Shown here in pieces: positions 27,241 to 55,438 of a stretch of 64,000 nt of DNA. This stretch comes from Flavobacteriales bacterium (GTDB taxonomy: Bacteria; Bacteroidota; Bacteroidia; Palsa-965): contig JBEIPA010000003.1 of the NCBI GenBank assembly GCA_040377305.1, positions 1-64,000 of the forward strand. The letters are read 5' to 3'. Every line of letters begins with the position of its first letter. Within the stretch, counting starts at the first letter, position 1. The notes under the pieces are model-generated. The model was given only the letters and a program-made list of their open reading frames with translations, ran no database searches and had not been told where the DNA came from. The translations under genes and the position numbers were made by a program.

Positions 27241-27422
27241 TGCCTGCGGCGCTTACCACGGCGAAACGGGGAAACGGAGAAATGTGTTTCTTGTTCTAAA
27301 CTTAACCGGAGGACACGGCGTATGTAGAGGGGTTGCGCGCCGTGATCGCCGGTTGGGTAACGGTTTTAAACACAAATATTGAACGCCGAAACTCCGCCTC
27401 GCCGTGGTAAGCGCCGCAGGCA
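27241..27422. mobile_element. 182-bp MITE with perfect 24-bp TIR and 5-bp flanking direct repeat
   Basis: TGCCTGCGGCGCTTACCACGGCGA (27241-27264) / TCGCCGTGGTAAGCGCCGCAGGCA (27399-27422); TGGGA at 27236-27240 and 27423-27427. Confidence 0.85.
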
Positions 27423-33992: not shown

Positions 33993-34114
33993 GATTAGTT
34001 GATTAGTTGAAATGCCGATTAGTAGATGGTATTATTTGATAATCTATGTTCGCGAGTGAACTCAATAGTAAACAACATCATCAACTAATCAACTAATTTG
34101 CATATCAACTAATC
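33993..34114. repeat. Inverted 8-mer (GATTAGTT/AACTAATC) arms upstream of the VOC gene
   Basis: gattagtt-gattagtt...gattagta versus tcaactaatcaactaat...tcaactaatc. Confidence 0.72.
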
Positions 34115-36126: not shown

Positions 36127-36185
36127 ACCGCCAAGACGCCAAAACGCCAAGATTATTCGTCTTGGCGTTTTGAATTCTTGGCGGT
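36127..36185. repeat. Compact hairpin of 8-mer arms between convergent genes
   Basis: accgccaagacgccaaaacgccaag-attattcgt-cttggcgttttgaattcttggcggt. Confidence 0.82.
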
Positions 36186-47023: not shown

Positions 47024-47989
47024 ATGCAGCAGTTCAAGAGCGACGTTGAAGCAGTAGATTACTTCCAGGACAAGTACAAAAAACTCTCTGCAGAGATTCA
47101 TAAAGTTATTGTAGGACAAGACGACGTTGTGAAAGACGTTCTCATTTCCATTTTCTCGAACGGTCACTGTTTGCTTGTAGGTGTACCCGGACTTGCGAAA
47201 ACTTTGCTGGTAAATACGATTGCGCAATCGCTTGGTTTGAGTTACAACCGTATTCAGTTTACACCCGATCTGATGCCTTCGGATATAATCGGAACAGAAA
47301 TTCTGGATGAGTCCCGCAATTTCAAATTTGTAAAAGGTCCGTTGTTTTCGAATATCATTCTCGCGGATGAGATCAACCGTACGCCACCGAAAACACAAGC
47401 AGCACTGCTCGAAGCCATGCAGGAGCGCGCTGTAACTGCAGCCGGAAAGCGCTACTCACTCGATAAACCATTCTTCGTACTCGCTACACAAAACCCGATC
47501 GAGCAGGAGGGAACATATCCTCTTCCGGAAGCACAACTTGACCGTTTCATGTTCAACGTGTGGCTCGATTATCCTTCGTACAAAGAAGAGATTGAAGTGG
47601 TGCGTCAGACAACAACAGATCGTGCAATCACTCCGGACAAAGTTCTGGGTGCAGACGAAATCCTCTTCATTCAGGAGTTGGTTCGTCGTGTTCCTGTTCC
47701 GGAAAATGTGCTTGAATACGCTGTAAAACTCGCTTCGAAAACGCGTCCGAATACAGAGCATGCCACTGCGGATATTAACCGCTTACTCTCCTGGGGTGCA
47801 GGTCCGCGTGCATCACAATATCTGGTGCTCGGCGCAAAATGTCACGCTGTTGTTTCAGGCAAATACTCTCCCGATATCGAAGACGTTCGCGCAGTAGCCG
47901 GACCAATTCTTCGTCACCGTATCGTCCGCAATTATAAGGCGGAAGCGGAAGGGGTTTCTGTTGAGTCCATAATCAAGGGTCTTCTGTAA
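47024..47989 (+). CDS. Second MoxR family AAA+ ATPase
   Basis: GVPGLAKT, IQFTPDLMPSD, DEINRTPPKTQ, EQEGTYPLPEAQLDRF. Confidence 0.94.
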   Translation: MQQFKSDVEAVDYFQDKYKKLSAEIHKVIVGQDDVVKDVLISIFSNGHCLLVGVPGLAKTLLVNTIAQSLGLSYNRIQFTPDLMPSDIIGTEILDESRNFKFVKGPLFSNIILADEINRTPPKTQAALLEAMQERAVTAAGKRYSLDKPFFVLATQNPIEQEGTYPLPEAQLDRFMFNVWLDYPSYKEEIEVVRQTTTDRAITPDKVLGADEILFIQELVRRVPVPENVLEYAVKLASKTRPNTEHATADINRLLSWGAGPRASQYLVLGAKCHAVVSGKYSPDIEDVRAVAGPILRHRIVRNYKAEAEGVSVESIIKGLL

Positions 47990-48112
47990 TTCGAAAATTT
48001 GAAGATTCGAAATTCGAGAAGGTAGTCGGGGCATTGGAAACGACACTCTGACCGATTTCGCGAGCAAATTCCGGTCAAATCTTCAAATTTTCGAATATCC
48101 AAATCTTCGAAT
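47989..48112. repeat. Inverted 8-mer arms starting at the stop codon
   Basis: attcgaaaatttgaagattc (47989-48008) versus aaatcttcaaattttcgaat (48077-48096), 19/20 complementary, plus further units. Confidence 0.8.
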
Positions 48113-48194
48113 GCCTCTGGCATTTCTTATATTTGGTACGCTGATCCCGCTTATCGGCACAAATTTTGCCTTATAGCAGGGCCAAACCAACCAC

Positions 48195-48971
48195 ATGAAA
48201 CAGCGTTTACCCCTCTTGATCGCTCTACTTGTACTTCCGGCAGTATTTGTCGCGCAAGGATTCGGACTACCTCCGGGATTTGATCTCAAGCAATTCAACA
48301 AGAACGAAGAACAGGCGCTCTGGTTTATCCAGTACGACTCCATGATTGTACGCGTTCAGAATTTCGATCGCGGAACAGCCGGGAAAGATTTCATCTGTTT
48401 TCAGGATAAGAAAGGCTGGAAAGTTGTTGCCGGAAGAATTGATTCGGCTCGCGGTATCATCGACCGCAAATGGTTTTCTGTGGATGTGAAGAACGTGGTT
48501 ACAGAAATGAAGAAAGAAGGAGACACGGTTCTTATTACATCAATGGGTCATGCCTTATACAACGGCGCAGTGGCGCACAAGAAACTGAAACTGTCCACTT
48601 CAGCTGTCTGGAAAAAATTCATTCGACAAAACGCCGATCTCACTTACACCGTAACTTATTTCTGTGATCAGGATGCGGGCGGTGTAATCTGGTACGGACC
48701 GGAATGCAACTGGTGGTACAGCGCAGATGGCATGAATCTCGTCACCACAAAAATTTCTGCAACGAAAGCACCCATGATGGCAACATCAACAGGTAATTTC
48801 CTCAACTTCTCTTGTCCCACCGAGAAGATGCCGACCATCGGAACCATGTGGATGGCTCACCGTGTTGGGCAGAAATATCCGAACGTTCACATCATCTATA
48901 AGACGGGGACGAGTACGTTGACTTATAACGCTACGAGCGGATCCTACTCTTGGATGCACGCTGCGAACTAG
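48195..48971 (+). CDS. Secreted hypothetical protein
   Basis: Signal peptide; TATATTTG at 48128-48135. Confidence 0.75.
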   Translation: MKQRLPLLIALLVLPAVFVAQGFGLPPGFDLKQFNKNEEQALWFIQYDSMIVRVQNFDRGTAGKDFICFQDKKGWKVVAGRIDSARGIIDRKWFSVDVKNVVTEMKKEGDTVLITSMGHALYNGAVAHKKLKLSTSAVWKKFIRQNADLTYTVTYFCDQDAGGVIWYGPECNWWYSADGMNLVTTKISATKAPMMATSTGNFLNFSCPTEKMPTIGTMWMAHRVGQKYPNVHIIYKTGTSTLTYNATSGSYSWMHAAN

Positions 48972-49074
48972 TGAGCTTCGCGGGGTAAAGAGTAGAGAGT
49001 AAAGGGGCGAGAGCAACCGACTACGATCATAATACACATGGTTGTCAAATTAGCAATTTGTTCAAACTTGAATT

Positions 49075-49325
49075 ATGAGAAAAGTTCAACTTGTGACAAT
49101 CTCAATAGTCACAACCATTTTTGGAATTCTCTTTCTTGGGTTGTATCTCAATTATTTGCTTGACGACAAATATCTATACGATTCAAATTTACCTAATGTG
49201 CAGGTTTAACAGGTGGCAAATTTGTTCAAGGAAAGAATGGCGTCCTGTGTTGGATTTACGCTCGCACTGTTGTTGTGGATTTTAGAGTTAACGGCATTGT
49301 GCATCAGGTGACTGGTGAAGAATAA
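49075..49325 (+). pseudogene. Probable frameshifted membrane-protein remnant
   Basis: MRKVQLVTISIVTTIFGILFLGLYLNY... stops at 49209; the -1 frame continues ...TVVVDFRVNGIVHQVTGEE* to 49325. Confidence 0.35.
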
Positions 49326-49399
49326 GTAATCGCAAGAATTTATCCGTTTACAAACGTTTGTTACCGACTAGTGTCGTTGACTTGTCTTTCATTTGCGCT

Positions 49400-49765
49400 A
49401 TGGAAAATCACTTCACTTTTGAAGACCTCAAGGTCTACCAGCGCGCACTGGATTTTATTGATAAAGTCTACGCTGCAACCGAAAAATATCCTTCTACGGA
49501 AAAATTCAATCTTACCAGTCAATTTCAGCGGGCCTCCGTTTCAATTTCCTTGAATATTGCAGAAGGAAATGGGTCAACCAACAAGGAGAACTTGAAGTAC
49601 CTTGGAATTGCGTCTCGGTCACTTAAAGAATGCGTAGTCTGCATTACCATTTCATTGCGAAGAAAGTACATTGATCAAGATGTTCACAATGCCTTACGCA
49701 ATGAGTTGGCTGAAATAAGTCGCATGATAAGCGGCTTGAAAAATTACATGAAGAAAAACATGTAG
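49400..49765 (+). CDS. Four helix bundle protein (TIGR02436 / 23S rRNA IVS-protein family)
   Basis: FEDLKVYQRA, YPSTEKFNLTSQFQRASVSISLNIAEG, LGIASRSLKEC. Confidence 0.92.
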   Translation: MENHFTFEDLKVYQRALDFIDKVYAATEKYPSTEKFNLTSQFQRASVSISLNIAEGNGSTNKENLKYLGIASRSLKECVVCITISLRRKYIDQDVHNALRNELAEISRMISGLKNYMKKNM

Positions 49766-49828
49766 AAACGGGAGACGAACTCGGATTTACCCGGTTCTGT
49801 CTCCCGCCTCTTTACTCTCTCCTCTTTA

Positions 49829-52800
49829 CTAATTATACACTTCCGGAATAACATCCACCCACATCCCCATCTTCCGCGCATTCACAGCATTGTCATACAT
49901 CGCTTCGCAATACACTGCCGGTAAATAGAAGTGTCCGGTGTACGTGGCGTGAAGCTGTACGCGATAAGTGCGAGATGAATTCTGTCCGATGTAGAAGTAG
50001 GTGAGTGCACGATCATCGCGAATGTCGCGGTAGTCGAAGTAATCTGATTTCGCCATCGGTTCTCCCGGACCAGCCATCATACGCTCGTTGCGCACTTCCC
50101 AACCCGAAGGGAAAATTTGTGTGAGCGCCATCTCGCGATACTCTCCGCGCAAACCGGGATTGCTGATTACAACTTCTGCAATGAAGTCGGTTCCCTGCGT
50201 GATTTGTTTCGGATCGAGATCCAATCCATTCATGCTGAAGTAACGAACATTCATGAGCAGGTTCGATTGTGCATCTTTTTCATTTCCTGCTTCAGGCACA
50301 CCAGCGAGAACAACGCGAACGTAAAGAATTCCTTTTCCGTTGTTCTTCACAGTAACTTTTCCAGGGTTTATTCCTTTCACATTCATGTCGGTTTGTGAAA
50401 CAGGATCTTTGATGTCAATCGTTCCGCTCTTGCCGTCGATGGTGTATTCTGCCTGAACACCTTTTTGTCCGGGATCTCCAGAAGAGAACTTGCACAACGC
50501 AAGCAACGTGTACGCAGTGGCTTGTGTGTTCATGTAGTAGTACGTGCGGTTCATGCGATCTGAAAGTGCTTTCGCAACCGGCGCACCCATTGTGCGATAC
50601 GTTCCGCCCATGAGACTGAGTGTTTCGAGAATCATGGCTTCATCGCGATCACCGCTACCGTAGGAGTAGGAATATTCGGTGTACGGTGAAATGGTTGTAG
50701 ATAGTCCCGTTACGATCTGTTTCGCAATTTCCGGTTGACCTGCGAGGTGATATGCAGCTGCCAGTCTCCACTTTGCCTGAAGCGTAAGTGTTTTTACTTC
50801 ACGCAAGCGATTCATCGCACCAAGTTCAGGAGCTTTCGCAAGCGCAAGTGTGTACAAGCGATACGCCTGAATCAAATCATCGTTGCGGTAGTAGAAACGA
50901 TCGTAACGTGGAGACCAATTCATCGCTTGTTCTTTCTGGAACGATTTCCAATCTGCCATCACACCACCGGGAAGTGTATAGCCTTTCGCTTCGGCTTCGA
51001 GCAGGAAATGACCAGCGTAGTTCGAGCCCCATTCGCTCGGGTATTGATCGCCTGGCCAGTATGCAAATCCTCCCGAAGAAGTCTGGAAGTCGCGCAAATG
51101 GTTGACCGCAGCTGTTACGTTTTCTTTGACCATACCTTTCTGATTCTCGGTGAGGTCAACTACATCATCGAGATAAAGTTGCGGGAATGCAGCAGACGTC
51201 GTTTGCTCAATACATCCGTGCGGATAGCTGATCAGATACTTTAATCGTTCTCCAAGATTCAGCGGAGGAATACTACTGATCTCAAGCGTTCCGGAATTTG
51301 TTCCTAGTATTCCAACCGGAATGTAATCACTAGTCCATGTTTGACCGGGATCAACGATTGCTTCTTTCGCTTCCGTCATTCTCGGATTCGGATTGCGCAC
51401 ATCAATTTCAATTTCGTACACTGCTGTCTCACCGCCACCTTTCGCAATAATCTTCACTGTGCCAAGTCCTGCTGCCTTCGCAACATTGAGTTTGTAGGTG
51501 AGCACTTCTTCGCCGATTGCTTTGAAGTTGACAGATTTAGTTGCGCCATCAGCAATCGTGAACATTTCGTTCGTGCTTACAGTGACTGTTACGTCTTTCA
51601 CTTTTGATTCCATTGCGAAAATGTTCACTGGCAAGTCAACCGTTTCACCAGGACCAACCACGCGCGGTAATGTTCCGAGAATCATCAACGGCTTGCGAAC
51701 AGGAACTGCTTTCTCCGCATTTCCATACGCGGCATCCTGTCCGGCGATAACCATCACACGAACAGAACCAACGTACTGTGGCATCATCACCGCGTGATTC
51801 ATTTTTTGTCCGGCTTTCAATTCGAATGGCCCGAGGAATTTCACCATCGGTTTGAATCGATTCGCTTTCTGTGTGCCTTTGTCTTTTCCTTCTCCATCAC
51901 CACCAATACCGAGTACACGTTCAAGTTCTGCGCCGTAAGCACCCATGACCATGTCGTACATATCCCACGTCTTCACACCAAGTGCTTCGCGCGAGTAGAA
52001 ATTATTCCATGGATCGGGAGTTTTGAATCGGGTGAGATCCAACAATCCTTCATCGACGATCGCAAGTGTGTACGTCATTGGTTTTCCGTTCTGTTCGCTG
52101 ACAGAAACATTCGCAATAGATTCCGGAGCCCACGCAGCAGCAGTTGTAATGACCGGTTCCAGATGCGTTTTCGGATCATCGACCACGATTGGTATTACGC
52201 CATACATTCTGATCGGTGCATCGTTCACCGTTTGTGCATGCGGTTGTATCAGAGTAACACCCACGTACACGTTCGGTGACATTTCTGCCGTAATCGGAAT
52301 GGCGTAACTGAGATTTCCTTTCGCTTTCGATTCAACCCAATAGTGTCCAAGAATTCCAGCGCCGTTTTCAACAGTGATCAGTGCGCGACCTTGTCCCGGA
52401 GAAGGAATCGTAATGTTCATTGTTTCTCCAACGGTGTACGATTTCTTATCCGAACTAAACTGAAGAAGACTCGCTGCTTCGTTGTTACGCGATGAGCTTC
52501 CGTCCCAGTATGGCCAGTCGAACCAAACCACTTTTCCTGTGGAATGTCCCGCTTTGTCGGTTACACGAATAAGGTAACGACCGTATTCATCGTCTTTCAC
52601 TTTGATGTTGAATGCGCCTTTTCCTTTTGCATCGGAATTGATTACCGTGTCAAGTATTGGTTCGTAGTAGTTGCTGTTTACATAGTAAGCAAGATCGTTG
52701 TAACCAGACGACCACCACCAACGCCAGCTCATCTTGTAGACTTTCACTTGTAAGTCGTTTCGCTGTGCAACTTTGCCGGTTTCATCAACTGATTGAGTCA

Positions 52801-55438
52801 GGATCGTATAGTTGGTTCCTGTGAATAATGTACCACCCCAGCCACTTCCTTCCGGTGCGTAAACTCCAACGTAATGCGAGTATGGAGAGAATTCGCTGGT
52901 GAAGTAGTCAATGCTGAATGCACCGCTTTGTTCGAATACACGCGTGTTGAACGAGGCGTTCAGTTTTCCCGGAGCACCTTTTCCGTTGAGAGAAGGTGAG
53001 AAAGTAGCTTTACCGTTCTCGTCGAGATTTCCTTCGAAGATGGTTTGATTTTCGGTGTTGAAGTTTGAAGCCGGATCATCGAATTCATAATTGTCGAATC
53101 CTTTGAACTTCGTGTCGCTTTCGTAAAGTGAAACATCAACCTGCGCGTTTAAATTTTTCGCAGGAGCACCAACGAGCCAGTTTGAGGAGAGATTGATTTT
53201 GTCGTCCGTTTTGCTCGCGAGGCCATCCGTTCCGAAATCCATGTTGATCTTCAAACGGTTTGGCATGATGGCTTCAACTTTCAGATTTTTCGTGAAGACC
53301 GCACCACCGACTTTAACTTTCGCAGACCAATATCCGGTTGGAGCTTCTGCATCAGTTGGAGTAGGGAAGGTGTAAAATCCGTTGACAGCAGTTGACTTCA
53401 CCGTGCGACTCACGAGTTGTCCACGCGCATTGTACACTTCCATCGTCACCGGGTGATTTGGAGGAAGCACGTTCAGCTTGTCTTCAAGAATAAATCCAAG
53501 GAAAAGTGTGTCTCCCGGTCGCCACACTCCGCGCTCACCGTAAATCATTCCTTTGATTCCTTTTTGAACTTCGAGTCCGCCCACATCAAATGCGCTCACA
53601 GAAAGTGCAGAACCATCATCCAGCTTCAGATAGCCGCGTTGAGTTCCGTTTTTCGCAACGAGGAGAAATGGTTTTTTCTTTGGCAATTCAATTTCCGCCA
53701 TTCCGTTTGCATCGCTCTTGAATGTTGAGATCAACTGATTCTGGAAACTGTAGAGTTCCATCTCCACATTCGCAAGTGGCATCGTTGACTTGATATCATT
53801 CACAGCGAACAACATGGAGCCGTCGTTGCCTCGTTTTGCCATCAAACCAAGGTCAGATGCAAGTACGTTGCGTGTTATTCCGCGAGAATAGTAGTAGGCG
53901 TTCGAACATGGATCGTCTCGATCTCCATCCCAGTACCAATAGTAATCGTCGTAGTAATCACCACCATAGTATCCGTATTCTCCACCGTCAAATTCAGGAT
54001 CGAATTCTTCTTCGCTTGGTGGAACGTACGCTGTTTCTTCGTCGTTATTCGTTGTGTCTTTCGGACAATTGTACATGGAGTACTCTTTGCGGAAACTGAT
54101 GTTCACACGATAAATTGCACCGGGTTCAGTTGCAATAAGCTGCCCCAAATCGAGTGAATAAGTCGTCCAGCGTGAATAATCCGCTTTCGCTTTGATATTC
54201 AGATCAACTTTTTTCTTCAGTACTACTTTTCCAACACGATACAGTTCGTTGTTTCCATCGATATTATTTACCTGAAGAAATTGCGGAATGTTGTTTTCAT
54301 AAATGCGGATGATCTTTACGTCAACAGCATTCAGGTTCACTACCTGAAACGGGAAAAGCAAACCTTTGTCCGTGTTAGGTAGAATTACACCATTACCAAC
54401 GAGTTTAAGTTCCGGTTTGAGATCTTCGAACTGAACTTTTTGGGTTTGCTTTTTCGACAAGCCAAACCCAAGAATGTTCTTCACGCCGGGATTTACGCTC
54501 ACAGAATAACTTCCGGTTAAATGCTCAGATGGATAGACACGCACATCGTTGTCTTCAACGGTATAACGATAAGTTGAACTCGATTTTTCGATTTCAATCA
54601 ATCCATTCAGGTCCTGTTTCTCCATAATCGGGTCGGAGAATTGAACGACCACACACTGCTCTTGCCCCTGTTCAACCCGAACACCCAGTACTTTGAAATC
54701 TTTCAGCGACGAAACATCAACTTTCTTACTATCTGCAAAATCAACTCCAATTGATTTTCCGTTTACCTCGACTAAGAAACTTCCTGCTTTATCGGTTCTT
54801 GCAATCGAATCAATTGTGAATTTGTGAGTTGCATGATCGATTTCATGTTCCCAGCGAACAGGAAGTTTTTTGCCGTTCTGTGTTGCGGTGAGCACTTTCT
54901 CCAACTCAGCGTTATCAGCCGCATCCCCGGTGATAATACTGCCCTTCATTTGTTGCCAGCGAAGTGTTTTCTTGTCAATCGTTTTTGTCCCTTCCAACTG
55001 ATAATTCATCGTCTGCATCATCGTACGGAAGCTGAACTTCATGCGCTGTAGATTCTCCGGAAGATTTGCAACGAGTTTGCTCAAGGCGAAATCCACCTCG
55101 TAGGATTTATCAGAAGGTAGTCGCTTCGCCGGACGAAACTCGATCGTTCGTGTGTCGATCCAATACGTTTCTCCTTCAATCGCGGGACTGAAAGAAAAGT
55201 ATTCATCGGTTACTGCTTCGTCGATGGTGATTGCACCTGTGTACTCTTCGCTAAGCATTACACGGATGTAAGATTCATTGCTGATTACGCCCGAAGTGTA
55301 AGCTGCAACGTAACCGCTGAATGCAGGATCCACTTTTGTGATTTGGACTGCAGATTCGCTGCGGTTTGCGATGAACGGAATGGAGATCATCGTTATGACA
55401 ATCAGGACAAAGATTCCGAGAAGTACTTTTCTGGACAT
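49829..55438 (-). CDS. Bacterial alpha-2-macroglobulin
   Basis: ERGVWRPGD, LAIVDEGLL, PQYVGSVRVM, LPRV..PGE, thioester YPHGCIEQTTS, EAMYD. Confidence 0.95.
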   Translation of the reverse strand: MSRKVLLGIFVLIVITMISIPFIANRSESAVQITKVDPAFSGYVAAYTSGVISNESYIRVMLSEEYTGAITIDEAVTDEYFSFSPAIEGETYWIDTRTIEFRPAKRLPSDKSYEVDFALSKLVANLPENLQRMKFSFRTMMQTMNYQLEGTKTIDKKTLRWQQMKGSIITGDAADNAELEKVLTATQNGKKLPVRWEHEIDHATHKFTIDSIARTDKAGSFLVEVNGKSIGVDFADSKKVDVSSLKDFKVLGVRVEQGQEQCVVVQFSDPIMEKQDLNGLIEIEKSSSTYRYTVEDNDVRVYPSEHLTGSYSVSVNPGVKNILGFGLSKKQTQKVQFEDLKPELKLVGNGVILPNTDKGLLFPFQVVNLNAVDVKIIRIYENNIPQFLQVNNIDGNNELYRVGKVVLKKKVDLNIKAKADYSRWTTYSLDLGQLIATEPGAIYRVNISFRKEYSMYNCPKDTTNNDEETAYVPPSEEEFDPEFDGGEYGYYGGDYYDDYYWYWDGDRDDPCSNAYYYSRGITRNVLASDLGLMAKRGNDGSMLFAVNDIKSTMPLANVEMELYSFQNQLISTFKSDANGMAEIELPKKKPFLLVAKNGTQRGYLKLDDGSALSVSAFDVGGLEVQKGIKGMIYGERGVWRPGDTLFLGFILEDKLNVLPPNHPVTMEVYNARGQLVSRTVKSTAVNGFYTFPTPTDAEAPTGYWSAKVKVGGAVFTKNLKVEAIMPNRLKINMDFGTDGLASKTDDKINLSSNWLVGAPAKNLNAQVDVSLYESDTKFKGFDNYEFDDPASNFNTENQTIFEGNLDENGKATFSPSLNGKGAPGKLNASFNTRVFEQSGAFSIDYFTSEFSPYSHYVGVYAPEGSGWGGTLFTGTNYTILTQSVDETGKVAQRNDLQVKVYKMSWRWWWSSGYNDLAYYVNSNYYEPILDTVINSDAKGKGAFNIKVKDDEYGRYLIRVTDKAGHSTGKVVWFDWPYWDGSSSRNNEAASLLQFSSDKKSYTVGETMNITIPSPGQGRALITVENGAGILGHYWVESKAKGNLSYAIPITAEMSPNVYVGVTLIQPHAQTVNDAPIRMYGVIPIVVDDPKTHLEPVITTAAAWAPESIANVSVSEQNGKPMTYTLAIVDEGLLDLTRFKTPDPWNNFYSREALGVKTWDMYDMVMGAYGAELERVLGIGGDGEGKDKGTQKANRFKPMVKFLGPFELKAGQKMNHAVMMPQYVGSVRVMVIAGQDAAYGNAEKAVPVRKPLMILGTLPRVVGPGETVDLPVNIFAMESKVKDVTVTVSTNEMFTIADGATKSVNFKAIGEEVLTYKLNVAKAAGLGTVKIIAKGGGETAVYEIEIDVRNPNPRMTEAKEAIVDPGQTWTSDYIPVGILGTNSGTLEISSIPPLNLGERLKYLISYPHGCIEQTTSAAFPQLYLDDVVDLTENQKGMVKENVTAAVNHLRDFQTSSGGFAYWPGDQYPSEWGSNYAGHFLLEAEAKGYTLPGGVMADWKSFQKEQAMNWSPRYDRFYYRNDDLIQAYRLYTLALAKAPELGAMNRLREVKTLTLQAKWRLAAAYHLAGQPEIAKQIVTGLSTTISPYTEYSYSYGSGDRDEAMILETLSLMGGTYRTMGAPVAKALSDRMNRTYYYMNTQATAYTLLALCKFSSGDPGQKGVQAEYTIDGKSGTIDIKDPVSQTDMNVKGINPGKVTVKNNGKGILYVRVVLAGVPEAGNEKDAQSNLLMNVRYFSMNGLDLDPKQITQGTDFIAEVVISNPGLRGEYREMALTQIFPSGWEVRNERMMAGPGEPMAKSDYFDYRDIRDDRALTYFYIGQNSSRTYRVQLHATYTGHFYLPAVYCEAMYDNAVNARKMGMWVDVIPEVYN

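Follow-up and report, generated by a model that had tools for sequence, protein, structure and literature searches.

Results

Architecture of the locus

The DNA analyzed here (the window, 64,000 nucleotides) corresponds to positions 1-64000 of contig C45 in the source genome G000, which is 5.18 Mb in size and 99.99% complete and, judging by gene content, probably belongs to the Bacteroidota. A cassette located between two protein genes, outside any rRNA gene, consists of two inverted arms enclosing a broken open reading frame (ORF), a leader motif and an intact gene of a four-helix-bundle protein. The features are as follows (coordinates, strand, description, basis):

47989..48112, no strand: empty 8-mer hairpin, of the family that borders the C11 paralogue (of the same class as this cassette, but no derivative of it)
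48195..48971, + strand: flanking host gene, 258 aa, no family (ORF, profile searches)
48985..49013, + strand: left arm, four 7-base units, 29 nt (inverted-repeat search; alignment with five other arms of the same family)
49075..49329, + strand: broken small ORF, 84 codons, hydrophobic, 37% GC (in-frame stops at codons 45 and 79)
49340..49370, + strand: leader motif, 31 bases (copies before comEC, dprA, yraN, radC, Y1 transposase and GxxExxY genes)
49388..49395, + strand: -7-like box, 17 nt 3' of the leader motif (spacing fixed at 17 nt across motif copies)
49400..49765, + strand: four-helix-bundle gene, 121 aa, PF05635/TIGR02436, Avd-like fold (profile matches, structure model)
49769..49806, no strand: local predicted hairpin 3' of the four-helix gene, sharing 6 nt with the inner end of the right arm (predicted fold)
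49801..49829, - strand: right arm, 29 nt (inverted-repeat search)
49829..55438, - strand: flanking host gene, alpha-2-macroglobulin family (ORF, profile searches)

The arms are complementary at 26 of 29 positions and represent the top inverted repeat of the 11 kb searched. Their ungapped score is 20, compared to a maximum of 11 among 300 shuffles, and the best period of both arms is 7 (0.68 and 0.64). An earlier interpretation of the same DNA made from its letters (the sequence-only reading) had described 29-bp arms around a decayed ORF and an intact four-helix gene; this description holds, with a measured spacing of 787 nt. It also stated that the right arm overlaps the stop codon of the alpha-2-macroglobulin gene: the overlap exists, but it is a single base (the outermost base of the arm is the last base of the stop codon) and is common among such hairpins. 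No target-site duplication is visible at the window cassette; an empty copy of the arms on contig C52 has a possible A-rich 6-base repeat, perhaps by chance. An Rfam search over 47900-50000 yielded no rRNA match, and its four matches are all far under gathering scores. The predicted hairpin at 49769-49806 may terminate transcripts from both directions; it is absent from the results of the terminator scan.

Further empty hairpins of other families are present in the window at 27258-27408, 33993-34089 and 36129-36167. In 5 relatives, alpha-2-macroglobulin is followed on its own strand by the 258-aa gene, but the two genes face each other in G000 and in the relative G015; therefore, the 258-aa gene seems inverted. 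Repeat hairpins now abut both ends of this gene (48195-48971). The gap between it and the MoxR ATPase gene (47989-48112; loci L079, L080, L081) is filled by a different repeat family in each of three relatives, and a further relative has no repeats there.

The four-helix protein and the broken ORF

The 121-aa protein encoded at 49400-49765 scores 110.7 bits against PF05635 (cut-off 33.8) and 103.3 against TIGR02436 (cut-off 24). Its structure model (pLDDT 96.8) has four long helices and superimposes on 2GSC with a TM score of 0.91 and on Avd (4DWL) with a TM score of 0.80, in agreement with the Avd relationship proposed from sequence; over the Avd structures 4DWL and 8UB7, the TM score is 0.78-0.80 at 12% identity. 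The solved relatives 2GSC and 2RLD have five chains. The protein does not reach the Avd cut-offs (NF033474, 38.8 versus 80 bits), and the 99.99% complete genome contains no PF00078 match, so that no reverse-transcriptase partner was found; on these two grounds, a diversity-generating retroelement was rejected. A GTDB scan with the protein as the query returned distant homologues only (31-49% identity). The nearest homologue, 61% identical, is located at a different site in G015, with related arms and the same leader.

The decayed ORF proposed by the sequence-only reading is real: in addition to its two in-frame stops, an unbroken 84-aa homologue with 87% identity was found, the single homologue detected. 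This intact homologue has no Pfam family, and its Atlas matches are at most 0.86 and without a name; the broken ORF itself, used as a query, gave no match in 26 genus genomes. It is likely to be a passenger, or cargo, that was inserted in the loop between the left arm and the leader and is now decaying. The low GC content of this ORF and an integrase gene led by the same motif prompted consideration of an integron cassette, a reading that was dropped because the arms are periodic and no attC-like core is apparent by eye.

Inverted arms accompany the family

G000 contains 9 genes of the PF05635/TIGR02436 family, and the 7- or 8-base unit in the flanks differs from gene to gene; the arm score is at least 15 at 8 of the 9 genes and 10 at the ninth. 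Across the genus, inverted arms (score of at least 12) were detected at 32 of 38 family loci (the 9 of G000 and the best 29 of 148 matches from other genus genomes), compared to 4 of 150 random control genes. These control counts and the shuffle scores reject a chance origin of the arms and of their layout. In other phyla, 80 distant loci were sampled and 2 truncated ones dropped; 55 of the remaining 78 have arms that reach the same score, mostly of period 6. The arm-gene-arm arrangement is, as the sequence-only reading proposed, a recurring unit, and other family members carry inverted arms in their flanks. Likeness of arms tracks likeness of proteins only weakly (Mantel rho 0.15, 36 loci), and once near-identical pairs are set aside, little co-evolution of arm and protein is seen; labels are, moreover, shared among kin. 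It should be noted that an unpublished genome (G012) contributes single rows to several of the genus-wide counts; no conclusion rests on this genome alone.

Inverted flanks scoring at least 15 were also found at 8 of 8 GxxExxY genes (L171-L178); several of these flanks consist of 9-base units, and empty copies exist in G000. Unrelated ORFs of 158-260 aa are located within arm pairs or between two hairpins (G000:C21:36372, C6:157888, C7:79399, C60:178147; L271), and these enclosed ORFs are possibly captured cargo.

Empty copies of the arms

The genome contains 98 period-7 and 173 period-8 arrays, compared to 0 and 3, respectively, after triplet shuffling. An inverted partner is present for 175 of 614 arrays in G000 versus 0 of 105 in shuffled sequence. 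There are 129 inverted pairs, of which 105 are short (at most 250 bp) and empty; 108 pairs span at most 300 bp, and in these the paired arms are approximately three units long. The arms of the genome's own paralogues were matched by 49 of the 108 empty hairpins, whereas foreign arms, in sets of 9 drawn from 28 loci of other genomes, matched 7.5 on average and 21 at most. The arms of the window locus gave the best score for only 1 of the 108 hairpins. The window arm has six matches, all in G000, and none in 26 other genus genomes; its empty pairs are two in total, C45:181313-181444 and C52:146925-147019. The claim that gene-less derivatives of the cassette exist is, therefore, correct for these two pairs, located elsewhere in G000, but not for the nearby hairpin at 47989-48112, which was rejected as a derivative because it belongs to the 8-mer family of the C11 paralogue. 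In alignment A1, for each of the three pairs of the window family, one arm starts after GG and its partner after TA; the element may thus be polar.

The same data bear on the possibility that the hairpins are REPIN-like passengers of Y1 transposases, with small genes falling into the loops and the four-helix protein uninvolved. There are 10 Y1 genes in G000, unrelated small ORFs (including the broken ORF of this cassette) are also found within arm pairs, and Bacteroidetes Y1 genes of subclass 2.6 are described as having atypical flanking structures with copies elsewhere (available sections of PMC6006769). However, the association of arms with four-helix genes is family-wide and extends across phyla, each paralogue's own arm family is matched by empty hairpins of the genome, and the Y1 genes that were inspected are flanked by non-periodic palindromes rather than by arrays of 7-8-mers. 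We consider this explanation quite improbable.

Turnover at the sites in relatives

At the 3' end of alpha-2-macroglobulin, no four-helix gene was found in any of 28 relatives (1.5-kb flank, in some cases shortened by contig ends); many of them have other repeat arrays directly behind the stop codon. Only G015 shares the gene order of G000; it has a palindrome and another 7-mer family at this site, but no four-helix gene. In a relative represented by pieces 94-100% identical to G000 (run X2), another arm family is reached from both flanking genes, on two separate contigs, and the 298 nt adjoining the stop are unlike the four-helix gene. A relative of about 87% identity (run X4) has the same cassette, with the left-arm stretch outside the comparison; it differs at 37 of 297 nt in the small ORF and at 52 of 755 nt in the gene and right end. 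Since the cassette is old enough to occur in this relative as well, its movement is rare. On a metagenome contig (L080:1643-1951) that breaks off within the four-helix gene, a 53%-identical homologue occupies the opposite strand directly behind the 258-aa gene, either through an independent insertion or through an inversion between arms.

The sites of the two empty copies are similarly variable. Of the five relatives compared at the C52 site, three are empty and the remaining two have other repeat families; four relatives are readable at the second C45 site, one of them empty and three with other repeat families. Thus, empty alleles of the kind anticipated by the sequence-only reading do exist, and, far from being stably syntenic, the window locus itself is filled differently in relatives. 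In two orthologues of the C52 site (L274 and L275, corresponding to G000:C52:146925), the left and right arms come from different repeat families, which suggests recombination between elements. At the second C45 site, G015 has a related repeat family with a similar inner unit, and its 61%-identical four-helix homologue is located between arms of that same family; hence, the window arms are likely a drifted branch of it. No contig joint removes the cassette, as excision or circle formation would, although contigs drop rare variants. One candidate, a joint of 48011 to 49337 in run X1, has a 23-base side and no explaining locus in G000; it was left out of account as probably coming from another organism. 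Behind alpha-2-macroglobulin in another genome (G008, L024), there is an 8-mer array, a terminator, the same leader motif, and then a gene that is KilA-N-like by eye.

Turnover is relevant to the view that the four-helix protein is a domesticated host regulator and the hairpins its regulatory sites at gene ends and promoters, with one family per paralogue. The hairpins are intergenic (9 of the 108 pairs are inside called ORFs) and often adjoin stops or promoters; the repeat families are paralogue-specific, and a regulated promoter would fit as well. Conversely, close relatives have either no repeats or a different family in the same gap, the protein family is missing altogether from 4 of 24 genus genomes, and the proximity to stops is a modest excess (50 of 91, compared to a rough expectation of 38). 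A regulatory role of this kind appears very unlikely.

A leader motif shared with DNA-uptake genes

The 31-base leader motif is followed by 17 nt, the -7-like box and the start codon of the four-helix gene; the box (49388-49395) has one mismatch to the Bacteroidota -7 consensus. About 40 copies of the motif are present in G000. They precede comEC, dprA, one of the two radC genes, and genes of the UPF0102 (YraN), integrase, HigB, DUF559, NYN and exonuclease types, two clusters that are ssb-like by eye, and also Y1 transposase, GxxExxY and other four-helix genes; there is no leader motif upstream of comM and the second radC. Examples in G000 are L252 (comEC), L179 (dprA), L185, L182, L199 and L200. 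In another genome (L166, G010), a close homologue of the four-helix gene is located within an ssb-like gene cluster led by the same motif. Genes such as comEC and dprA serve transformation, and competence reportedly occurs in a Bacteroidota, Riemerella. The sequence-only reading passed over this motif.

We evaluated the association in both directions. A matrix made from nine copies at mobile or small genes (threshold of at least 14 bits) matched before dprA in 13 of 26 and before comEC in 12 of 22 genomes of the genus (both counts include G000, and 3 short comEC loci were dropped), compared to 79 of 4008 background genes (2%). The reverse matrix, made from ten motif copies upstream of dprA and comEC in other genomes, matched before 4 of 9 four-helix, 6 of 10 Y1 and 3 of 8 GxxExxY genes versus 75 of 4008 background genes; these ten copies were picked from the result of the first matrix, so the second result is not independent of it. 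Among four-helix genes of other genomes, 3 of 34 have the motif by matrix (1 short locus dropped) and a few more by position; the G015 homologue has the motif, which was missed because of a wrong start call. Outside the genus, there is one motif match in 80 other genomes of the class.

Some motif copies are perfect 32-bp palindromes and others are runs of 11-base units. Because several copies are located in REP-like palindromes or before unrelated genes, the motif itself may be mobile. The motif at 49340-49370 is likely to be a regulator site or an upstream promoter element; genus-restricted and set at a constant 17 nt from the -7 box, it likely marks a DNA-uptake regulon. A sigma-70 promoter scan, which does not cover the promoter type of this lineage, was at chance level. 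In the literature searched, which covered few subscription journals, we found no described regulatory motif of a Bacteroidota competence regulon and no paper on the arm-gene-arm unit or the motif.

The probable promoter inside the arms is important for the suggestion, made in the sequence-only reading, that the unit is processed as an RNA stem-loop. In this explanation, the unit is an mRNA intervening sequence: read-through transcription would allow the arms to pair, and RNase III would excise the gene-bearing loop. In predicted folds, the outer 20-23 bases of the arms pair with probability near 1 on either strand (z -5.8), and the same protein family occurs in RNase III-excised 23S intervening sequences with complementary ends (available text of PMC4990558). 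A promoter inside the arms, however, would mean that the gene's own transcript holds the right arm only, and at 5 of 9 paralogues the upstream neighbor points away. Furthermore, pairing is not partner-specific: for 78 pairs chosen regardless of pairing, the score was 16.7 with the own partner and 16.4 with cross-partners (p 0.70), and no local covariation of the paired arms was found. Left and right arms of different families are tolerated at one site in relatives, and RNA cutting alone leaves the gain and loss of DNA unexplained. We regard RNA processing as unlikely.

Discussion

A proposed repeat-armed element read by its own protein

Observed directly are the arms, a family of three arm pairs (one loaded, two empty), sites that are empty or differently filled in relatives, eight further paralogues, and the leader motif. 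On balance, we lean toward the explanation that the cassette represents the copy with a gene in a small repeat-armed family specific to this lineage, the element likely spreading as single-stranded DNA hairpins during competence. The two parts of this explanation differ in strength: that the cassette belongs to a mobile repeat-armed element is, taken alone, quite probable, whereas the competence-linked single-strand route is a possibility that falls short of probable. The four-helix gene probably serves as the master copy of a very small selfish element, switched on at DNA uptake, and the system as a whole is likely to be REPIN/RAYT-like, with an Avd-like cognate gene instead of a transposase, acting on single-stranded DNA in competence.

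The following steps can be envisaged. The leader motif, shared with uptake genes, would cause the four-helix gene to be co-expressed with them. The protein would form a ring, like its solved relatives, and the ring would bind single-stranded DNA in which the cognate four-unit arm has folded. There is no mobility enzyme within the arm-gene-arm unit, and the four-helix protein has no known catalytic role; cutting and joining would, therefore, have to come from elsewhere, most likely from a Y1 (HUH) transposase whose gene follows the same motif, or from the transformation machinery. All 10 Y1 (PF01797) genes of G000, the one transposase type covered by the search, are located away from the cassette; enzymes of this type act on single-stranded hairpins, as outlined in PMC6006769. 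The borrowed enzyme would then place arm pairs in gene gaps or over resident hairpins.

A broader and rather doubtful extension is that these elements constitute a new class of selfish elements, in which each Avd-like ring would be the specific reader of its own arm family, would be made in competence, and would pass single-stranded arms to a borrowed enzyme that writes empty hairpins, along with caught genes, into gene gaps. If true, this would provide a function for the 23S "intervening sequence protein" family, which is widespread and has solved structures but no known function. It would also explain why intergenic repeats of 7-8 bases are, as has long been noted, over-abundant in bacteria; such heptamer repeats lack an accepted origin (available sections of PMC4692102 and PMC4679880). 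G000 offers nine paralogues with distinct arm families and, for the window arm, a minimal family in which one copy is loaded and two are empty; the motif hints at when the four-helix gene is likely expressed.

Comparison with known systems

The protein has the same fold as Avd of diversity-generating retroelements (4DWL, 8UB7; TM 0.78-0.80, 12% identity; available sections of PMC10053308). Unlike in Avd systems, however, its score is below the Avd cut-offs and no reverse transcriptase was found in the genome. With the 23S rRNA intervening sequences (S23p/IVP), as outlined in the available text of PMC4990558, the cassette shares a PF05635 protein (2GSC), complementary stem-closing ends, which are predicted here, and a patchy distribution. 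It differs in its location between two protein genes, in the likely promoter inside the arms, and in having gene-less copies elsewhere.

In the REPIN-RAYT system, the repeats are thought to derive from the flanks of an autonomous element (Bertels and Rainey 2011, available sections of PMC3116915). As far as that account goes, there are three similarities: (i) extragenic inverted doublets with a short spacer, predicted to form hairpins, occur in many copies per genome; (ii) several families coexist in a genome, and each is linked to one single-copy gene that it flanks; (iii) presence varies between close relatives here, comparable to the strain-level turnover of REPINs. The differences are that the tied gene encodes an Avd-like four-helix bundle (PF05635) rather than a Y1/HUH tyrosine transposase, that the arms are built from 7-8-base units in periodic succession, whereas a REP is palindromic, and that no excision intermediate was seen here in contigs, which drop rare variants. 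The cassette falls outside the REPIN-RAYT system, as its tied gene does not encode a Y1 transposase.

Intergenic heptamer repeats have been reported for Xanthomonas and Nostoc (PMC4692102) and for Beggiatoaceae and Bacteroidetes (PMC4679880). In the available sections, these two papers tie the repeats to no four-helix-bundle gene, unlike the results presented here ("four helix" occurs 0 times in both), and name no mechanism of spread. The published repeats nevertheless resemble the arms described here: as characterized in those sections, they consist of 7-base units, about four per run, often form inverted pairs, are located within 50 bp of stops, and are likewise sporadic and strain-specific.
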